Source: a virus (lineage: Duplodnaviria > Heunggongvirae > Uroviricota > Caudoviricetes). From it: a DNA stretch of 35,777 nucleotides. The position numbers and the translations under genes were made by a program. The notes under the pieces are model-generated. The model ran no database searches. It was not told the origin of the DNA and was given only the letters and a program-made list of their open reading frames with translations. Within the stretch, counting starts at the first letter, position 1, and each line of letters starts with the position of its first letter. The stretch is taken from IMG/VR virus record IMGVR_UViG_2778261389_000005, positions 1-35,777 of that record; one strand, given 5' to 3'. Shown piece by piece: positions 7,035 through 19,077 of the stretch.

Positions 7035-7460
7035 TTATTTTCTAGATGATGTTGGGGACCAAGGTAACGTTATAGTATCTAACACTGTGTTTTTGAACAT
7101 ATTTTCAAAAACTGTTTTTGTACATACATATACATAATTTTCAAAAAACCAAGCATTTTCATTATAAAAATCCTCAGTTACTTCTTCATCGAGGTCACAC
7201 TCAAATGTTAGTGTCAAGGTAGCCTCTGCCTTGAACAATACATCCTCACCATCATCAAAATCTTTTTTATCGCGAGGGAAACCAGTTATCGATGGCTTAA
7301 CTTCAATAAAGAGCCAATTTCCATCTTCATCTTTTTGAGGAACAACGTGATGCTCAGAAAATTTTAAGCTATATTTTCCGCCTTCAGAATTATCACTGTC
7401 GTCGATAAAAAGGGAAGAACCCTCGAGATCAAATCCCTTAAAGCGAATTTTATCAAGCAT
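7035..7460 (-). CDS. Hypothetical acidic protein, third gene of hicAB operon
   Basis: 141 aa from ATG at 7458-7460, overlapping hicB stop by 1 nt (TGATG); ORF-track version starts at TTG 7496; followed by terminator; AT-rich. Confidence 0.45.
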   Translation of the reverse strand: MLDKIRFKGFDLEGSSLFIDDSDNSEGGKYSLKFSEHHVVPQKDEDGNWLFIEVKPSITGFPRDKKDFDDGEDVLFKAEATLTLTFECDLDEEVTEDFYNENAWFFENYVYVCTKTVFENMFKNTVLDTITLPWSPTSSRK

Positions 7461-7933
7461 CAATGTGGCACTCCGTTGTCTACTGAAACTTCCCAATAGG
7501 TCTCTTCTGTACGTCTACGGGATGAGAAGAAAGTAACTTCTCTAACATCCCTCGGTTTTTCAAAGTGGTAGTGAACCTCTTTTTTCCCATTAACTGACTC
7601 ACTGACAGCCTGTTTTACATAATCGTTTAAAGTCATATTCTTAGCTTTAGCAGCTAAATATGCTTTTTTATGCAGGGATTCACCTATCCGGATGTTAAAC
7701 GAACCACTCATTGTCTTATCTGGAGATTTTCCTATCTCTTCACAAGTGGAGAGGTAATCGTCCACGGCCTCCTCAAAGGCTGCACGGAGTTCTGCAACCG
7801 TTGCACCCTCATAAGTGACGAGATCATTTATACATTCGAGTTTTCCATGCATCACCCCATCTTCAAATGAAATGCTGGAGCTACCATAGTAACCTTTGTA
7901 TTTCATCAAGTTATTCATGATCATCAATCTCAT
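7460..7933 (-). CDS. hicB: HicB-family antitoxin
   Basis: Motif MKYKGYYGS...DG..HGKLECINDLVTYEG...EL..AFEEAVDDYL..CEE.G..P.K..SG.FN.R typical of HicB; likely true start at internal Met (7918 or 7906); about 40-aa C-terminal extension. Confidence 0.8.
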   Translation of the reverse strand: MRLMIMNNLMKYKGYYGSSSISFEDGVMHGKLECINDLVTYEGATVAELRAAFEEAVDDYLSTCEEIGKSPDKTMSGSFNIRIGESLHKKAYLAAKAKNMTLNDYVKQAVSESVNGKKEVHYHFEKPRDVREVTFFSSRRRTEETYWEVSVDNGVPH

Positions 7934-8165
7934 CTAACAGCTGTTTAACTTCTTCCAAGACGTACCTTTTGAGGGTGTTTTCAGGATGAGGCTCATGAAA
8001 AATGACCAATCTATCAACACGTTGGTTGTAAAATTTACGGCCAGAACCTCGTTTAGCATTCAAAAGCTTGAAGCCATACTGGTTCATGAGAGTAACGAAC
8101 TCATCCCAAGTAAAATTTTTGGGTAAGCCGTCTAACTTTGACTTTAGCTTTTCCTTTCTTCCCAC
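7911..8165 (-). CDS. hicA: HicA-family toxin (YcfA-like fold), non-canonical
   Basis: 84 aa, GTG start; aligns to HicA pattern (GF.L...RGS..KF....V..HEPHP) but with GSGR in place of the usual GSHH; overlaps hicB. Confidence 0.7.
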   Translation of the reverse strand: MGRKEKLKSKLDGLPKNFTWDEFVTLMNQYGFKLLNAKRGSGRKFYNQRVDRLVIFHEPHPENTLKRYVLEEVKQLLDEIDDHE

Positions 8166-8469: not shown

Positions 8470-8862
8470 TTACTCGGCATCGCCCTTAATCCGCCGCCCC
8501 ATATATTTGGCGTACAGATCGTCGAGTTCCTTCAGGCGCAGTGATACCGCCTTAAGAACTCCACCCTGATCCTCTTCGGGGAGTTGACGGAAAAGGCGTA
8601 AAAGCTCTTGCTCATTACTTTTTAATCCATCATTGGGCCCTATATCCTGCCCCAAAACCCAGGCTAAATTCACACCAAGCGCATCAGCTAGCTTAAGTGC
8701 GGAGTTTTTCCCAATAGTTCCCCTTACAAACCAGTTGTTAACCGACTGGGATGTTACGCCACAAATTCTGGCCAGATCTGCTTTTGAGAGATGTTTACTA
8801 TTCGTGATCTCATTGAGTCGTCTGACCTGTGGGTTATCTGATTCGTGTGTATTTTTTCTCAT
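8470..8862 (-). CDS. DicA-like HTH (XRE) repressor, paralog 2
   Basis: N-terminal HTH (LSKADLARICGVTSQSVNNW) and C-terminal LRLFRQLPEEDQ...LRLKELDDLYAKYM; about half identical to the upstream gene; alternative GTG start at 8877. Confidence 0.7.
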   Translation of the reverse strand: MRKNTHESDNPQVRRLNEITNSKHLSKADLARICGVTSQSVNNWFVRGTIGKNSALKLADALGVNLAWVLGQDIGPNDGLKSNEQELLRLFRQLPEEDQGGVLKAVSLRLKELDDLYAKYMGRRIKGDAE

Positions 8863-8881
8863 GTACAAGAGTATCACTTAG

Positions 8882-9265
8882 CTAATCAGCATCGCCCCTG
8901 ATTCTGCGATTCATGTACTTGGCATATAGTTCATCGAGTTCCTTCAGACGCAGGGAGAAGATCCTTATCATATTCTGCTGTTCTTCTTCCGGTAACTGTC
9001 TGTAGAGCTCCAGAATACGTTGTTCATCAGGCTTAAGACCATCCTTCTCTCCAACATCCTCACCAAGTAGCCAGGGGACGGACACCCCTGCAGCGTCAGC
9101 AACCGCTAATGCAGAACTTTTGCTGATTCTTCCTGTTTTGAACCAACTGGAAACAGCTTGCTTACTGACGCCAGCAACCCTGGCCATCTCTGTTTTAGAG
9201 AAACCTTTCCTGTTCAGTTCTGTAAGCCTGGAAATCAGCTCATTTGTCATTGTTTTTTCGCTCAT
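8882..9265 (-). CDS. DicA-like HTH (XRE) repressor, paralog 1, probable CI analogue
   Basis: 127 aa; HTH plus LPEEEQ C-terminal module resembling DicA; divergent from cro-like gene across operator region. Confidence 0.75.
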   Translation of the reverse strand: MSEKTMTNELISRLTELNRKGFSKTEMARVAGVSKQAVSSWFKTGRISKSSALAVADAAGVSVPWLLGEDVGEKDGLKPDEQRILELYRQLPEEEQQNMIRIFSLRLKELDELYAKYMNRRIRGDAD

Positions 9266-10214: not shown

Positions 10215-11123
10215 ATGTCAAACACCGCTGAAATAATCAATTTCCCAAATAAAACCGAACAACCGGGAGGTCGTATGGCCGACCTGTCGAACGGGTATAC
10301 CAAGGTCGCTAACGAGATCCAACAGCTTAAGCCTCGCCTGAGACTGTCAGGCCGGGAATGGCAATGTTTTGAGGCGGTGATCTGGCTTACCTACGGCTGG
10401 AACAAGAAACAGGACCGCGTGACAAATACGGTTATTGCCGAGCTTACGGGCCTGAGCGATACGCATGTATCGGACGCGCTTAAGTCTCTCGCAGAACGCA
10501 AAATCATCTTTTCACAGAAGCAGGGCATGATGAAAATCGTCGGTGTAAACACTGACCTTTCAGCATGGATTTTAGACAAACCGGAAACGGGAAGAAAATT
10601 CCCGAAAACGGGAAAATCCTTCCCGAAATCAGGAATAACCTTCCCGAAAACGGTAGACACCCAATACAAAAACAAGAACAGTATTAAAAGATCTTCGTCC
10701 GAGAATTCTGACGAATCCTCTGACGCACGTCTGAAGAAATTTTTATCAACTCATCCTGAAGCTGCGGTCTACACACCATCCGGTGCGAAGTGGGGCTCTG
10801 CTGAAGACCTCGAGACAGCTAAGTGGATTTCCTCCAGGGTGAAGCTGATTAACCCAACCTGCAAAGCCCCGGACATGACCTCCTGGTCTAACACTGTTCG
10901 CCTGATGCGCCAGATAGACAACCGGTCGCACCAGGACATCTGCGCGCTGTATGACTGGGCTAGCAAACACCACTTCTGGCAGACCAACATCCTGAGTCCC
11001 GAAAGCCTGCGTAAGCAGTGGGACAAGCTGACAATGCAGCGTAACGCCGGAGGTGAGCAGCGCGCTGTCAAGCCAGATCTGGACTTCAACAACACTGACT
11101 GGGCCTATGGGGTGATCCGATGA
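10215..11123 (+). CDS. O: Replication initiator protein, lambda O-like
   Basis: N-terminus MSNTAEIINFP...ADLSNGY...LTYGWNK parallels lambda O; iteron-encoded PKTGKSFPKSG segment; ORF-track start 10182 is upstream. Confidence 0.8.
   Translation: MSNTAEIINFPNKTEQPGGRMADLSNGYTKVANEIQQLKPRLRLSGREWQCFEAVIWLTYGWNKKQDRVTNTVIAELTGLSDTHVSDALKSLAERKIIFSQKQGMMKIVGVNTDLSAWILDKPETGRKFPKTGKSFPKSGITFPKTVDTQYKNKNSIKRSSSENSDESSDARLKKFLSTHPEAAVYTPSGAKWGSAEDLETAKWISSRVKLINPTCKAPDMTSWSNTVRLMRQIDNRSHQDICALYDWASKHHFWQTNILSPESLRKQWDKLTMQRNAGGEQRAVKPDLDFNNTDWAYGVIR
10578..10700. repeat. Putative replication origin: four about 20-bp iterons plus AT-rich tract inside O gene
   Basis: Repeats CCGGAAACGGGAAG, TCCCGAAAACGGGAAA, TCCCGAAATCAGGAAT, TCCCGAAAACGGTAGA at 21-bp period, each with internal dyad symmetry, then A-rich sequence. 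Confidence 0.6.
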
Positions 11124-11809
11124 AATCTCTTGCAGAGCAGATGCGTAACCACGACCGCGAGCAGATGAGCCGCATGGCCCATAACCTGCCAGAGCAGTAC
11201 CAGGAGTGCGCGCCGGTCGAGCAGGTGGCGCAGGTATTCAACAAGCTGTTCAACGAGCTGCGCGCCGCGTTCCCGGCCAGCATGGCGAACTTCCGCACCC
11301 AGGAAGACCTGAACGAATTCCGCCGTCAGTGGCTGCTGGCGTTTCAGGAGAACGGGATCCACACCATGGCTCAGGTCGATGCCGGCATGCGCATTGCCCG
11401 CCGCCAGGAGCGCCCATTCCTGCCGTCGCCGGGCCAGTTCGTCGCCTGGTGCAAGCAGAGCGGCGGCGCGCTGGGCGTCAACGTTGACCAGGTGATCGCC
11501 GAATACTGGGACTGGCGTAACCGCTCGTTCGAATTCATCTCCAGCGAGCAATTTCCATGGTCGCAGCCGGTCATGTACCACATTTGCGTAGAATTGCGCC
11601 ACCGCAGCACCGAGCGCCAGTTAACGCATGGTGAACTGGCACGCGAGGCAGGCGATCTGCTGGACATGTGGGAAAGGCGCGTCACCGAGGGTAAGCCAGT
11701 GCCGCCGGTACGCCGGGCTATTGCCGCACCAGCTGCCGAGCAAGGGCCGACGCCGATCCAGCTGCTGCTGGCCAAGTACAACCGCAACAAGTCGAACGGG
11801 ATGGTGTGA
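11120..11809 (+). CDS. P: Replication protein P (helicase loader), lambda P-like
   Basis: Near colinear similarity to lambda P (MKSLAEQMRNHDREQMSRMAHNLPEQY..., RPFLPSPGQFVAWC); ATGA overlap with O. Confidence 0.85.
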   Translation: MKSLAEQMRNHDREQMSRMAHNLPEQYQECAPVEQVAQVFNKLFNELRAAFPASMANFRTQEDLNEFRRQWLLAFQENGIHTMAQVDAGMRIARRQERPFLPSPGQFVAWCKQSGGALGVNVDQVIAEYWDWRNRSFEFISSEQFPWSQPVMYHICVELRHRSTERQLTHGELAREAGDLLDMWERRVTEGKPVPPVRRAIAAPAAEQGPTPIQLLLAKYNRNKSNGMV

Positions 11810-14178: not shown

Positions 14179-14829
14179 ATGAGCGACAACCAGTTAGCAC
14201 CTTGTTGGGAATTTCAGCCTTACCTTGCTGAAAGCAATGTTCGTCAGTTGTTAGCGGAAATTGCTAATGTACTCGAGCAATTGTACTACCACAAACACAC
14301 ACTGGACAGTAACTGGTCCGAAGGTGTAAGGGCTTATGATTGGGTCAGAAATCATTTGATTCAAAGTGAAGGGACACTGCCGGGTCTGGAAATGGTTTCG
14401 AAGGGACTGGATTATGTGGTTGCGTTAAATAAAGTGCCGCTGCAGTTCTCCAAAGATTGCATTAATAACCCGAAGAAGAAGCATCGCCTTCTTCGAAATA
14501 GGGTGGAGCATGAGCAACTTTCATTGTTCGGTGAAACTGAAGCCGAGCAAGATATTACATGGCGGATCATCGCCGAACCATTTTTATCCGATGAAGAAGA
14601 TGGCGAGCTGGAATCAACATTGCCTCGCTGGGAAGTGGCTTTAGTTGGGTTTAACGCATATGGTGCCCAGATCAGTATGGTTTCACACCAATCTACTGCT
14701 TCAGCGCCGCTTATGTCTCTTGATACCAACACTCTTCCGGATGAAGCTGAGATTGGCAAAGCCTCTCTTCGCCGCCGTAAAAAAGATCAAGATTTGGATG
14801 TGAGCAGTAATGGAACATCAAGTGAATGA
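14179..14829 (+). CDS. Uncharacterised protein, partner of HTH-peptidase; candidate toxin/effector
   Basis: 216 aa, no domain recognised by eye; 3' end overlaps the next gene by 20 nt; acidic and basic C-terminal tail. Confidence 0.55.
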   Translation: MSDNQLAPCWEFQPYLAESNVRQLLAEIANVLEQLYYHKHTLDSNWSEGVRAYDWVRNHLIQSEGTLPGLEMVSKGLDYVVALNKVPLQFSKDCINNPKKKHRLLRNRVEHEQLSLFGETEAEQDITWRIIAEPFLSDEEDGELESTLPRWEVALVGFNAYGAQISMVSHQSTASAPLMSLDTNTLPDEAEIGKASLRRRKKDQDLDVSSNGTSSE

Positions 14830-15913
14830 CTTTGCTGAGTATCGTGGGGATAAGCTCAAATTAGCCAGAATGGCTGTTGGGCTCTCCTGCGAAGAGTTAG
14901 CGGAGAAAATTGGTAAAACAAAACAATTCGTTAGCAAATTGGAAAAAGGGTTTAAACCATCAGAACAGTTGTTAGAATTAATCTCATCTGCGCTGATGAT
15001 TAAATCTGATTTCCTATTTACTGAACGAAAATATGCTTTAGAAAGCGATGTTTGCCATTTTCGGAGTAAAAAATCGAGAACCCAAACATTAACCAATAGT
15101 GTTCTGGCAAGGGCGGAGATTCTTAACATTATAATCTCTGCCGTTGAGGGAGAAATCGAGTTTCCTGATGTTTTCATACCTGAGCACCCCGGTGCTGAAT
15201 TGCTGACTCCAAATGATATTGAACGTGTAGCGGAAGACTGCAGAAGAGCATGGAACTTAGGGCTGGGACCTATATCCTCAATGGTCAAACTGGCTGAGAG
15301 TTTGGGGGTTATTGTTGCTCATGTGACAGGAGTGGATGACCGCGTAGATGCTTTTACTGTTCATAACAACAGGCCAGTAATCATCCGAAATAACGTCAAA
15401 AAGAGTATATGCAGATTCCGATCAGATTTAGGTCACGAATTGGGGCACTTGGTTATGCACGAAGGTATAACCACAGGAGATAAAGTGACTGAATCGCAAG
15501 CGGATCGTTTTTCAAGCGCGTTGCTAGTTCCTCGATTGTCCTTTATTAAAGAGTTTCCCCGTATACGAGGAAGACAGTTCGATTGGAACGCCCTAGTTGA
15601 GTTTAAGCTTCGGTGGAAGATTAGTCTTAAAATGTGCATTTACCGAGCAACAACTCTAGGCCTGCTGACGCAGGAGCAGGCAAGAACAGGTTATATGCAT
15701 TTGAACTCTAAAGGATATACGAAAGTTGAACCAGGAGATGAATTTATTCGCCCGGAAGAACCGAGTATGTTAGCTGAGGCGATTGAAATGCTGGATGATG
15801 CAACATGGATGAGCATTCTCATGAAAACTGGTTTAAGCCAGGAGTTGGTTAGGGAGTTATTCTCGGTAAACCGCCCACTGTCAAATCCAAGAAATCTACT
15901 TCAACTGGTTTGA
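14810..15913 (+). CDS. HTH-XRE regulator fused to ImmA/IrrE-family zinc metallopeptidase
   Basis: N-terminal HTH (LKLARMAVGLSCEELAEKIGKTKQFVSKLEKG) and HEXXH motif (HELGHLVMHE) in a COG2856-like domain; 367 aa. Confidence 0.8.
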   Translation: MEHQVNDFAEYRGDKLKLARMAVGLSCEELAEKIGKTKQFVSKLEKGFKPSEQLLELISSALMIKSDFLFTERKYALESDVCHFRSKKSRTQTLTNSVLARAEILNIIISAVEGEIEFPDVFIPEHPGAELLTPNDIERVAEDCRRAWNLGLGPISSMVKLAESLGVIVAHVTGVDDRVDAFTVHNNRPVIIRNNVKKSICRFRSDLGHELGHLVMHEGITTGDKVTESQADRFSSALLVPRLSFIKEFPRIRGRQFDWNALVEFKLRWKISLKMCIYRATTLGLLTQEQARTGYMHLNSKGYTKVEPGDEFIRPEEPSMLAEAIEMLDDATWMSILMKTGLSQELVRELFSVNRPLSNPRNLLQLV

Positions 15914-15928
15914 CTCAAAGCTTGTAAT

Positions 15929-15952
15929 AAACCCGCTATATGCGGGTTTTTT
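15929..15952 (+). terminator. Rho-independent terminator
   Basis: CCCGC-TATAT-GCGGG hairpin followed by TTTTTT. Confidence 0.6.
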
Positions 15953-16076
15953 CTTTCTGGTAGCGCGCTGTGGTAACGCTGTGCCTCCAGCGCTCGCTGA
16001 GGCGCTGGTGCGTGCTAATTTGCCGGAGCTTTGTCAGCAGAAACAAATAGCGGCGTAATAAAACATTGCTAATTCA

Positions 16077-16103
16077 ACCCGCTACGGCGGGTTTTCTTTT
16101 TTT
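16077..16103 (+). terminator. Rho-independent terminator, second copy
   Basis: ACCCGC-TACG-GCGGGT hairpin followed by TTTTCTTTTTTT; similar to terminator at 15929. Confidence 0.6.
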
Positions 16104-16165
16104 AATACTGACAGAAAATTAACAATTTGTGCTCTTAAAACGTTGATCATTTCCGCGCATAGGTA

Positions 16166-16183
16166 TACTGTATAAAAACACAG
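16166..16183. promoter_or_regulatory. LexA (SOS) box upstream of dinI
   Basis: CTGTATAAAAACACAG matches CTGT-N8-ACAG consensus, about 20 nt before the dinI start. Confidence 0.6.
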
Positions 16184-16203
16184 TAAATGCAATGGGGGCC
16201 ATT

Positions 16204-16437
16204 ATGAAAGTTGAATTAACCATTGATCGCATGAAAGAACTTCCTAAAGGCGCAGTACCAGCACTGGAGAAAGAACTGCTTAAGCGCCTGAATGATCACT
16301 ATGACAATTGCAGGCTCACAATCCGCCGTGCCGGGGCCGATGGGTTAAGTGTTTTTGGTGGTGACAAGGACGATAAAAAGAAAATTGAATCAATCCTCCA
16401 GGATACCTGGGAAAGCGCTGACGACTGGTTTTATTAG
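16204..16437 (+). CDS. dinI: DinI-family DNA damage-inducible protein
   Basis: MKVELTIDR...AVPALEKEL...LSVFGGDKDDKKKIESILQDTWESADDWF closely parallels E. coli DinI; alternative ATG at 16192. Confidence 0.8.
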   Translation: MKVELTIDRMKELPKGAVPALEKELLKRLNDHYDNCRLTIRRAGADGLSVFGGDKDDKKKIESILQDTWESADDWFY

Positions 16438-16554
16438 AATTGCGCTTAAGGCTGGCGCGCATTTTTCAGAATACCGCAATTTGCGTAACCCTCTGATGCT
16501 GCTGCCGACAATCTTTAATCGCGTCTGTTAGTCGCTCGAAGGGAGAACATAAAT

Positions 16555-16803
16555 GTGAGTGATTCAGCTTTGCAAACGTCAGAAGACAACTGGTATGACA
16601 TTGTAAGAAGGTCTGACGGCTGCGTGGTGTTTAGCTTTCCTTCATCGGGCAGGCATCTAATTTATCGCGTCAATGGCATGGTTTCTATGCGGCCTTTGCT
16701 GGATGATGAAGAGGTCTTTACTCCTAATGGTTTTATGCAGTTTATTCACCGTCTCGGCTACCGGGTAACCCCACCTTCTGATAATATGAAATCAACGGTC
16801 TGA
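16555..16803 (+). CDS. Hypothetical protein
   Basis: 82 aa, GTG start with GGGAGAA RBS. Confidence 0.45.
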   Translation: MSDSALQTSEDNWYDIVRRSDGCVVFSFPSSGRHLIYRVNGMVSMRPLLDDEEVFTPNGFMQFIHRLGYRVTPPSDNMKSTV

Positions 16804-16837
16804 ACAACCGTAACCTACTGCGCCACGGAGAGAAACC

Positions 16838-17437
16838 ATGGCGCACGAACTACAACTCATCAAGCATTCCTCAGGAATCCTGATCCCCGCTACGCCGGAG
16901 ACCAGTGATTTACTGCAATCAAAAATCAAACTCGGCTCCGTACTGGTGGCTGAGTTCCGGCAGGTACGCAACCCGGCCTTTCACCGTCGTTTCTTCGCGT
17001 TACTCAATCTCGGTTTCGAATACTGGGAACCCACCGGCGGGGCAATCTCCTCCAACGAACGCAAGCTGGTAACCGGCTATGCCAAGTTCCTTGCCTCATT
17101 CGCGGGAAGTGAAGCAGCACTCCTGGATGCTGCTGAGCAATATCTGGACCGCATCGCCGATAAGCGCGCCGGTAGTATCAGCATCTGCAAATCCTATGAC
17201 GCATATCGTGCATGGGTGATCATCGAGTCTGGCCACTACGACGCCATACAGCTTCCCGACGGCACCCTTCGCAAACACCCCCGCAGCATTGCCTTTGCCA
17301 ACATGGACGAAACCGAGTTCCAGCAGCTGTACAAAGCCGCGCTCGATGTTCTGTGGCGCTGGGTATTGTCCCGGGCATTCAAGGACCAGCGTGAAGCGGA
17401 AAACGCCGCATCGCAGCTCATGAGCTTTGCGGGGTGA
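16838..17437 (+). CDS. DUF1367-like nin-region protein
   Basis: 199 aa; N-terminus MAHELQLIKHSSGILIPATPE resembles YbcN/DUF1367 proteins of lambdoid prophages. Confidence 0.5.
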   Translation: MAHELQLIKHSSGILIPATPETSDLLQSKIKLGSVLVAEFRQVRNPAFHRRFFALLNLGFEYWEPTGGAISSNERKLVTGYAKFLASFAGSEAALLDAAEQYLDRIADKRAGSISICKSYDAYRAWVIIESGHYDAIQLPDGTLRKHPRSIAFANMDETEFQQLYKAALDVLWRWVLSRAFKDQREAENAASQLMSFAG

Positions 17438-17643
17438 TGGCGATGAAATATTCCTGGTTCCACCATCACGAATGCACAACCGATCAGGCCGACGAGCTGG
17501 TGGCCAGTTACCGTCGTCGTGGCGCCACGGTAGAACGTAGCCTGAATCGCGACAACATCACCTGGACTATCAGCGCAAAATTGCCTGAATGCGAGCATCC
17601 GGCGCGTACACCAAGAACCTTTCGACAAAAGGTCTGGGGGTGA
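17434..17643 (+). CDS. Hypothetical small protein
   Basis: 69 aa, overlaps neighbours by 4 nt; His/Cys-rich. Confidence 0.4.
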   Translation: MMAMKYSWFHHHECTTDQADELVASYRRRGATVERSLNRDNITWTISAKLPECEHPARTPRTFRQKVWG

Positions 17644-17645
17644 TT

Positions 17646-18257
17646 ATGGCTAAGTTACCGCGCCGGAAGTGCGCCAACAAGGAATGCCGCCAGTGGTTCA
17701 ATCCAGTACGCGACACGCAGACCGTCTGCGGTTATGAGTGCGCCAGCGCCGTCGGGAAAGAGCAGACCAGAAAAGCCCGGGAGGCTGCACAACGCAAAGA
17801 GTCTGCCAAGCAGCGCGCCACTGAGAAGAAAGAACGTGCAGCCTGGCGCCAGCGTAAAGCTGCAGTTAAGCCGCTGAAGCACTGGATTGACCTGACGCAG
17901 CGTGCCGTAAATGACATTTGCCGCGAGACGGAGTTGGCGGAGGGGCGGGGCTGTATTTCCTGCGGAACTAAAACGGCGTTCGCCTGGCATGCTGGCCATT
18001 ATCGGACTACGGCAGCCGCTGGGCATCTGCGCTTCACTCGCTTCAACATCCATCTTCAGTGTGATGTCTGCAACGTCTACAAATCCGGGAATATCGAAGC
18101 ATACCGAGCCGCGCTGGTGGAACGTTATGGCGAAGAGCTGGTACTAGCGCTCGAGAACAATAACGCTCCGCATCGTTGGACTATTGAAGAACTGAAGGAA
18201 ATCAGACTGACCGCGCTGGCTGACCTGCGCGCGCTGAAAAAGCAGGAGGCAGCATGA
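17646..18257 (+). CDS. ninG: NinG/Rap recombination-associated protein
   Basis: MAKLPRRKCANKECRQWF...CISCGT...WHAGHYRTTAAA..LRF...HLQCDVCN matches lambda NinG; ORF-track start 17589 is upstream. Confidence 0.85.
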   Translation: MAKLPRRKCANKECRQWFNPVRDTQTVCGYECASAVGKEQTRKAREAAQRKESAKQRATEKKERAAWRQRKAAVKPLKHWIDLTQRAVNDICRETELAEGRGCISCGTKTAFAWHAGHYRTTAAAGHLRFTRFNIHLQCDVCNVYKSGNIEAYRAALVERYGEELVLALENNNAPHRWTIEELKEIRLTALADLRALKKQEAA

Positions 18258-18391
18258 CATTCGAATCCTATTTTGCCGATCACCTCCGCGTTCGTTGGCA
18301 ACGATTGCGCTTATACCACTTTCCGGGCTCCGTGCTGACGGATTACCGAATACTGAAGAACTACATCAAAACCATAGGCGGTGCAGTATGA
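18254..18391 (+). CDS. Small ORF between ninG and Q (45 aa)
   Basis: ATG overlaps ninG stop (ATGA) with strong AGGAGG RBS; stop overlaps Q start (ATGA). Confidence 0.3.
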   Translation: MTFESYFADHLRVRWQRLRLYHFPGSVLTDYRILKNYIKTIGGAV

Positions 18392-19077
18392 ATACTCAAT
18401 TTCTCGAATACGTGCGCCAGCAGTTGATGGTGGCCACCGCCGATTTAAGTGGTGCGACGAAAGGGCAGTTGATGGCGTGGCTTGAAAACGCGCAGTTCGA
18501 TACGGGAACGTTTAAACGTAAAAAGCCTCGAGTGCTGGATGAAGTGACCGGGGAAATGATTACGCTGGATAACCCGCCAATACCGGGCAAGCAGTCGCAT
18601 ACCAAGGGTTCGCATATTCCCCTGGTGCAGCCGGTTGAATACTCCAGCGCATCGTGGCGCCGCGCACTGATGTCACTCGAAGAACACCAGAAAGCGTGGC
18701 TGCTATGGAACTATAGCGAGAACGTGCGCTGGTGCTATCAGGTGGAAATCACTCAATGGGCGTGGGCAGAGTTCCGGGAGCAGCTCGGCGCGAAGAAGGT
18801 AGCCGGCAAAACGATGGAGCGCCTGAAGAAGCTTGTCTGGCTCGCGGCTCAGGACGTGAAAGCAGAGCTGGCAGGGCGTGAGACGTACGAATATCAGGCG
18901 CTGGCGTCGCTGGTTGGCGTAACGCCAAAAAACTGGTCAGAGACCTTTACTGACCGCTGGGTTGAGATGCGCAGCATCTTCCTGCGACTGGATAGCGGGG
19001 CTTTATTGCAGGTTACGCGATCACGTTCACAACAAAAGGCGACAAATTTAGACTCAAGTCTTGCAAAACTGGATTGA
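18388..19077 (+). CDS. Putative late-gene antiterminator (Q-like), assigned mainly by position
   Basis: 229 aa from ATG 18388; located after ninG and directly upstream of a promoter, terminators and lysis genes; sequence family not recognised with certainty. Confidence 0.5.
   Translation: MNTQFLEYVRQQLMVATADLSGATKGQLMAWLENAQFDTGTFKRKKPRVLDEVTGEMITLDNPPIPGKQSHTKGSHIPLVQPVEYSSASWRRALMSLEEHQKAWLLWNYSENVRWCYQVEITQWAWAEFREQLGAKKVAGKTMERLKKLVWLAAQDVKAELAGRETYEYQALASLVGVTPKNWSETFTDRWVEMRSIFLRLDSGALLQVTRSRSQQKATNLDSSLAKLD

Follow-up and report, generated by a model that had tools for sequence, protein, structure and literature searches.

A probable Gifsy-type, LexA-repressed induction operon with dinI as its first gene in a lambdoid prophage

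The closest described counterpart of the locus considered here is the LexA-controlled operon of the Gifsy prophages, in which a dinI homologue, an antirepressor gene, and irsA follow one another (Lemire, Figueroa-Bossi & Bossi, 2011, PLoS Genet, PMC3121763). In these prophages the LexA box adjoins the dinI homologue, terminator-like palindromes precede it, and the antirepressor gene has a non-canonical start codon (PMC3121763). The Gifsy antirepressor alone suffices for induction, binding the repressor and freeing it from DNA, and the repressors themselves are not cleaved (PMC3121763). When the LexA-box segment of Gifsy-2 was swapped for PBAD, induction depended on arabinose (PMC3121763), a result that also shows read-through from the dinI promoter into the antirepressor gene. 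Non-polar deletions of dinI or irsA had no significant effect on the induction of Gifsy-1 and Gifsy-3, and the original authors described the dinI–irsA region as conserved in prophages of Escherichia, Citrobacter, Klebsiella, and Enterobacter (PMC3121763). The Gifsy dinI homologues, whose box lies 19 bp from the ATG, are upregulated 4.6- to 23-fold by nalidixic acid (PMC8072944).

Antirepressors under LexA control, acting against a non-cleavable repressor as proposed here, are also known from coliphage 186 (Tum), its relatives PSP3 and Fels-2, and N15 (AntC). Tum carries a DinI-like C-terminal half, so that the association of DinI with an antirepressor recurs (PMC3121763). Tum, however, is one fused polypeptide with the antirepressor at its N-terminus, whereas the present locus has two ORFs 117 nt apart with dinI first; it is analogous to the Tum-type fused antirepressor-DinI class in function and does not belong to it. 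The chromosomal dinI of E. coli and the dinI/DinR locus of Klebsiella are of the same family as the gene described below and share with it a LexA box placed over the promoter or transcription start and a conserved TWESADDWF helix. There, dinI is monocistronic and is followed by a real terminator, while here it precedes an antirepressor gene. In Klebsiella the 3′ end of dinI yields an sRNA, DinR, which represses ftsZ (PMC10907235).

The stretch of DNA analysed here (35,777 nucleotides, referred to as the window) represents a Gifsy/Rac-type lambdoid prophage. Its gene order begins with integrase, RecT, and RecE, followed by HicAB, two short leftward HTH repressor genes, and rightward genes of the ydaS/ydaT type; it continues with O and P, then cargo genes, the dinI region, NinG and Q, and the lysis and terminase genes. 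The genes for the HicA toxin (7911–8165) and HicB antitoxin (7460–7933), both on the minus strand, adjoin the immunity region. At the DNA level it is closest to E. coli KL53 (99.1%), followed by phage mEp237 (98.4%). The first-pass annotation had placed a dinI homologue in the nin region of a prophage, and this location is borne out, as the module lies between replication gene P (11120–11809) and NinG/Q (17589–19077), the nin-equivalent region. Its features are as follows.

16076–16093, plus strand: Rho-independent terminator-like hairpin (AACCCGCTACGGCGGGTT followed by a T run), from a terminator scan
16143–16171, plus strand: putative sigma-70 promoter, from inspection of the sequence and its counterparts in other loci
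16166–16185, no strand assigned: LexA operator (SOS box), the 20-mer TACTGTATAAAAACACAGTA, from its palindrome, its heterology index, and its conservation
16204–16437, plus strand: dinI homologue of 77 aa, first gene of the operon, from Pfam, a PDB match, and alignment
16438–16554, plus strand: spacer or leader of 117 nt between dinI and the antirepressor gene, from sequence and comparison
16555–16803, plus strand: GTG-started ORF of 82 aa, GfoA/GfhA antirepressor homologue, from its termini and a Salmonella ORF match
16838–17437, plus strand: irsA homologue (DUF1367), third gene of the module, from Pfam (DUF1367, 305 bits)

The order terminator, LexA box, dinI, small ORF with a non-ATG start, and irsA, outside the immunity region, is that of the Gifsy module. 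The same order is also present in Gifsy-1, Gifsy-2, mEp237 (98.4% DNA identity), and Salmonella phage SEN34 (85%), and in 53 of 5,426 complete E. coli genomes. On the strength of sequence, homology, architecture, and conservation, it is very probable that the LexA box and dinI stand at the head, as control region and leading gene, of a Gifsy-type prophage induction operon that LexA represses and that is made up of dinI, a gfoA/gfhA-type antirepressor gene, and irsA.

Compared with the E. coli consensus TACTGTATATATATACAGTA, 17 of the operator's 20 positions agree and the mismatches are confined to the variable AT-rich centre; the outer six positions of each arm are perfectly palindromic. Its inner 16-mer, CTGTATAAAAACACAG, occurs in a single copy in the window (16168–16183, plus strand) and in none of 100 shuffles. 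On a Lewis-type heterology index (HI), whose matrix was derived from 27 E. coli operators and is approximate, the 20-mer scores 2.08, ahead of 24 of the 27 operators in the training set (range 0.65–9.46). Not one of 200 window shuffles reached this value (best 5.96, median 11.9). The site has the CTGT-N8-ACAG form with an AT-rich centre, and its score, on this approximate matrix, lies inside the range of E. coli operators. The reverse complement of the operator is one position of 20 away from the Gifsy-1 (14028) box and two of 20 away from that of Gifsy-2 (Gifsy boxes from primers pp752/pp751 and the Gifsy-2 sequence), the asymmetric centre being in the opposite orientation here relative to Gifsy-1/Gifsy-3. 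When the upstream regions of 20 diverged loci were aligned, the CTGT and ACAG half-sites were invariant and the flanks varied, with at least two unrelated types of −35/−10 context around the half-sites. Together with the analogy to the Gifsy homologues, the sequence points to LexA binding at 16166–16185. An HI scan of the whole window yielded no further good LexA site. A second CTGT-N8-ACAG, TACTGTTCATAACAACAGGC, lies at 15355–15374 (core 15357–15372) inside the coding region of rmrA; its HI of 9.99 was equalled or bettered in 30 of 200 shuffles, and it is probably fortuitous as a LexA box.

The putative promoter has TTGATC as its −35 element (16143–16148), with either TATACT (16164–16169, 15-bp spacer) or TACTGT (16166–16171, 17-bp spacer) as candidate −10 element; both registers lie inside or against the LexA operator. 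A consensus promoter scan of 15700–17100 (at least 9 of 12 matches, 16–18-bp spacer) returned no sites, so the promoter was read by eye and from cross-locus comparison: a TTGA-type −35 together with GTATACTGT is also present in Gifsy-2 and in Citrobacter loci. The terminator-like hairpin upstream aligns with counterparts in the Citrobacter loci and Gifsy-2, and would be expected to insulate the SOS promoter from upstream transcription.

The DNA directly upstream of the terminator and LexA box is occupied by a Rosmer anti-phage defence pair (14179–15913), followed by a second terminator-like hairpin.

14179–14829: RmrT (PADLOC, E = 2.4e-26)
14810–15913: RmrA, with HTH and M78 peptidase (E = 1.6e-106)
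15929–15949: second terminator-like hairpin, after rmrA, from the terminator scan
15960–16058: C-terminal remnant of a DNA methyltransferase, beside the Rosmer pair

In E. coli relatives, homology is lost at various positions shortly before the terminator, and the region with the Rosmer pair therefore has the appearance of a variable cargo slot.

The open reading frame listed by the program for dinI starts at ATG 16192, and its stop codon is at 16435–16437. The start is better placed at ATG 16204, in view of a conserved Shine-Dalgarno sequence resembling GGAGG, the 20-locus alignment, and the annotations of mEp237 and E. coli. From this ATG the operator is 18 nt away when measured from the 20-mer and 20 nt away when measured from the 16-mer. 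The product matches the Pfam DinI family (PF06183) at 91.6 bits against a gathering cut-off of 24.2, with residues 14–76 spanning all 63 profile positions (1–63), and a phmmer search aligned residues 1–76 with residues 1–78 of E. coli DinI (PDB 1GHH/7YWA; E = 9.5e-18). The C-terminal ilqdTWESADDWF, a negatively charged helix implicated in RecA binding, is conserved. The first-pass annotation had described a good LexA box about 20 nt upstream of a DinI-like gene; the distance, the quality of the site as scored with the approximate matrix, and the family assignment were all upheld. The dN/dS of dinI is about 0.07–0.16, indicative of purifying selection, and DinI thus likely has some role. An effect on RecA or on SOS dynamics is possible by analogy with E. 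coli DinI, which binds RecA filaments.

The ORF that follows dinI belongs, on the evidence of its sequence, to the GfoA/GfhA antirepressor family; full GfoA and GfhA sequences were known here only through primer-derived termini and Salmonella homologues. Its N-terminus reads MSDSALQT as compared with MSNSALQK in GfoA (primer-derived), and its near-C-terminal HRLGYRVTPPSD corresponds to RRLGYRVTPPSD in GfoA (primers le117, le175, le163); the C-terminal ends are ...RRLGYRVTPPSDI for gfoA (primers) and ...HRLGYRVTPPSDNMKSTV for the window ORF. The commonest Salmonella GfoA-type ORF in IMG/VR, an 82-aa ORF started by TTG, matches it at 76 of 82 residues (about 93%), and the best matches of all are from Citrobacter (98%). 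The 5′ end of gfoA is given in the primer table as ATG-AGT-AAT-TCA-GCT-TTG-CAA-AAG (PMC3121763). An exact-pattern scan of IMG/VR with this sequence minus its first codon recovered 37 Salmonella-type loci (L033–L069), all of them TTG-started, and exact IMG/VR searches with the gfoA start written with GTG and with the primer-derived gfoA 3′ end gave no matches. The 3′ primer is one base off from the 37 loci, a mismatch that would be explained if gfoA of strain 14028 ended in ...PPSDI through a 1-nt difference. In the typical module, the antirepressor start is never ATG, being GTG here and in Citrobacter and Enterobacter and TTG in the 37 Salmonella-type loci. These non-ATG starts suggest selection for low translation of the inducer.

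Pfam and PADLOC assigned the 82-aa ORF to no family, and its 37 relatives are all without a functional name or Pfam family. BLASTP against GftA of Gifsy-2 was not significant (E = 0.98), and profile comparison (hhalign) gave a weak match (52% probability, E = 1.5e-4); the identification hence rests on GfoA/GfhA. This agrees with the published account, in which GfoA and GfhA are only distantly related to GftA (PMC3121763). The antirepressor gene has a dN/dS of 0.03–0.31, again indicative of purifying selection. By analogy with the Gifsy homologues, the ORF is the likely effector of induction. The third gene, irsA, matched DUF1367 alone in Pfam and PADLOC, and its product is 83% identical to STM1020 of Gifsy-2.

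The candidate targets of the antirepressor are two short repressor-like genes in the immunity region.

8885–9265, minus strand: short HTH-only repressor of GfhR type, 127 aa, from Pfam and identity to P0071
8470–8862, minus strand: second short HTH repressor-like gene, 130 aa from ATG 8862, from paralogy

The 127-aa repressor contains only HTH_3 and Phage_CI_repr matches in Pfam, where no S24 peptidase (autocleavage) domain was found. It is 89% identical to the S. Typhimurium protein P0071, which agrees with the GfhR primers le110, le111, and le103 in its N-terminus (MTKVK.H), internal start (VMSDNTL), and C-terminus (AKYMSRRIKGEGA). GfhR is one of two repressors for which inactivation by GfoA/GfhA has been demonstrated (PMC3121763), and by this analogy the 8885–9265 product is probably the target of the antirepressor. 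The product of the second gene is 55% identical to the 127-aa repressor, has a GfoR-like N-terminus, and is 97% identical to gp38 of mEp237. Among about 30 related loci, tandem repressor paralogues were seen only here and in mEp237. The paralogue is a possible second target of the antirepressor, and the pair might confer dual immunity.

The locus most closely resembles Gifsy-1 and Gifsy-3 of S. Typhimurium ATCC14028 (dinI–gfoA/gfhA–irsA, with GfoR/GfhR as repressors). The gene order and the layout of terminator and box are alike, the box overlaps the promoter 18–19 nt before dinI, and the antirepressor start is non-ATG. The likeness extends to the proteins, with the antirepressor about 93% identical to the Salmonella GfoA type, the HTH-only repressor 89% identical to the GfhR match, and an irsA homologue at 83%. 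It differs from Gifsy-1 and Gifsy-3 in its host, which is probably E. coli or Citrobacter, in the GTG rather than TTG start of its antirepressor, and in having two tandem repressor paralogues and a Rosmer pair inserted just upstream. Gifsy-2 (dinI–gftA–irsA, with GtgR/GftR as repressor) has the same architecture, with DinI 66% and IrsA 83% identical and with about 90% identity over 113–145 nt in the 3′ end of dinI and the spacer; its antirepressor type, however, is only remotely related, and its repressor family differs too.

When one genome per species was scanned with an alignment of the antirepressor family, 28 loci were recovered from Citrobacter, Enterobacter, Leclercia, Silvania, Atlantibacter, and others. 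A strong LexA box (HI 0.2–6.7) was present upstream of the antirepressor gene in 27 of them; among random 200-nt control windows drawn from these loci, only 0.9% scored as well. The sole exception (L020) is a truncated contig. This 3,651-bp contig (JBEBQJ010000273.1) carries an enterobacterial GfoA-type antirepressor fragment and is binned as a Sphingobacterium MAG, probably through binning contamination. The box lies 16–20 nt before the dinI ATG in 19 loci. In six (L024–L027, L030, L031) dinI is missing, with the box lying 165–175 nt directly upstream of the antirepressor gene; since these loci keep the box and the antirepressor, the box is tied to the antirepressor, and dinI is optional. The dinI-less variants are from Leclercia, Silvania, and Pseudescherichia prophages and have a leader of a different type (at about 8800–9000 in those loci). 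The state of dinI also varies where it is present: its stop codon overlaps the antirepressor ATG in L023 (8747–9020), it is decayed in L032 (8651–8974), and it is shortened in L007. In 16 of the 28 loci, dinI-less ones among them, a repressor of the GfoR/GfhR family lies no more than 9 kb upstream. The constant feature is the LexA box with the antirepressor (and irsA), and dinI is a frequent first gene that is dispensable.

In a lysogen, host LexA bound at 16166–16185, over the −10 element, would keep the operon off, and the upstream terminator would block read-in from other prophage transcription. Upon DNA damage, activation of RecA and the ensuing self-cleavage of LexA would allow transcription of dinI, the antirepressor gene, and irsA. 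The 82-aa antirepressor would then bind the non-cleavable GfhR-type repressor (8885–9265), and maybe its paralogue, and strip it from its operators; the early operons would be switched on and the prophage induced. DinI, co-expressed, would be accessory and may tune SOS dynamics through RecA filaments, again by analogy with the E. coli protein. LexA binding, co-transcription, and the antirepressor–repressor interaction are all modelled on the experimentally studied Gifsy homologues. We infer the last of these because both partners are about 90% identical to characterised proteins, and co-transcription because the PBAD read-through in Gifsy-2 crosses a spacer that is 81% identical to the present one and has the same weak hairpin. 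The pairing with the resident repressor is likewise probable rather than certain, as antirepressor–repressor specificity varies among the Gifsy prophages.

The spacer itself invites a different emphasis. It is 81% identical to the Gifsy-2 spacer overall and 90% across the first 113 nt, and identity to Gifsy-1/2 reaches about 90% in the segment 16393–16554, which joins the final 45 nt of dinI to the spacer. It is only about 66% in the 5′ part of dinI, and the downstream antirepressor genes show no relationship at the nucleotide level. A weak terminator-like hairpin with a T run was found by the terminator scan at 16441–16459, after the dinI stop codon, and could limit read-through into the antirepressor gene; further on, a strong Shine-Dalgarno sequence (AGGGAG) precedes the invariant GTG start. 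Because the spacer is so well conserved although the downstream antirepressor genes differ at the DNA level, the dinI 3′ end and spacer could be read as a post-transcriptional element, acting through partial termination or as a DinR-like 3′ sRNA, which together with DinI as a RecA timer would tune the commitment from SOS to induction. If this were so, the dinI 3′ region would set the threshold for antirepressor synthesis. A permissive-threshold Rfam search of 15800–17000 gave only sub-threshold chance matches, with no sRNA family match at the dinI region and none within the spacer. The folding of the spacer RNA is no better than that of shuffles (z = 0.39), and the hairpin is not conserved in Enterobacter-type spacers, and a structured leader was dropped as the main explanation on these grounds. 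Queried with just the spacer in a distant search, the phage collection returned the same relatives only. We regard a post-transcriptional element as unlikely, and the conserved dinI 3′ end and spacer are most simply a mosaic recombination joint.

It could also be argued that dinI is a stand-alone, monocistronic, SOS-inducible moron whose product acts on RecA and so modulates induction or the SOS response, with the downstream ORFs unrelated to it. The assignment to the DinI family is solid, the gene is under purifying selection, and a terminator-like hairpin with a T run follows its stop codon, all of which this explanation would accommodate. Yet Gifsy-2 has the same hairpin and spacer, and there PBAD placed upstream of dinI gives antirepressor-dependent induction; non-polar dinI deletions leave the induction of Gifsy-1 and Gifsy-3 without significant change; and among the loci compared, dinI is absent from six that retain box and antirepressor and is decayed or shortened in two more (L032 and L007), and the hairpin itself is not conserved in Enterobacter-type spacers. 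A dinI moron of this kind is distinctly unlikely. The first-pass annotation had called the locus an SOS-box-controlled dinI, which is literally true as a label. As a description of the payload it did not stand, as it is the antirepressor gene at 16555–16803, just beyond the span then considered, that would couple SOS to induction. Its suggestion that DinI could modulate prophage induction runs counter to the only experiments done on the homologous system in Gifsy, as well as to the absence of dinI from 6 of the 28 loci.

Very improbable, in our estimation, is an operon that is indeed LexA-controlled but whose 82-aa ORF acts in trans on other prophages or is inactive, the prophage being induced by another route. 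Cross-talk and non-cognate pairings are on record from Lemire et al., with FsoA of Fels-1 acting on Gifsy-2 (PMC3121763), and the two different repressor paralogues in the window offer more than one candidate target. However, the resident repressor is 89% identical to the match of GfhR, a repressor that GfoA/GfhA inactivate (PMC3121763); it has no autocleavage domain, so that no alternative SOS input is visible; there is no other good LexA box in the window; and selection on the ORF is purifying. A chance match to the LexA consensus with no regulatory role, for which one might cite the 0.43 occurrences of CTGT-N8-ACAG expected per window and the second, apparently fortuitous copy at 15357, is effectively refuted by conservation, the box being fixed in its distance from the dinI ATG in 19 loci and its half-sites invariant in 20, and also by a score that no shuffle equalled and by the experimentally demonstrated LexA dependence of the homologous Gifsy sites (PMC3121763, PMC8072944).

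In summary, the Gifsy-type LexA-repressed induction operon remains the favoured reading of this locus. The system is already known, and the locus is a further enterobacterial instance of a described operon, with nothing new in principle. The link of the LexA box to the antirepressor and not to dinI corrects a natural but misleading view of such loci as an SOS-box-controlled dinI, and the 82-aa “hypothetical protein” should be named a GfoA-family antirepressor in annotations. The locus is a clear further case in which an enterobacterial lambdoid prophage, like many others, would sense SOS by means of a LexA-repressed antirepressor and not by repressor self-cleavage. Such a circuit would affect the response of the prophage to DNA-damaging antibiotics, along with that of the Rosmer defence genes it carries and of any other prophage in the same cell.
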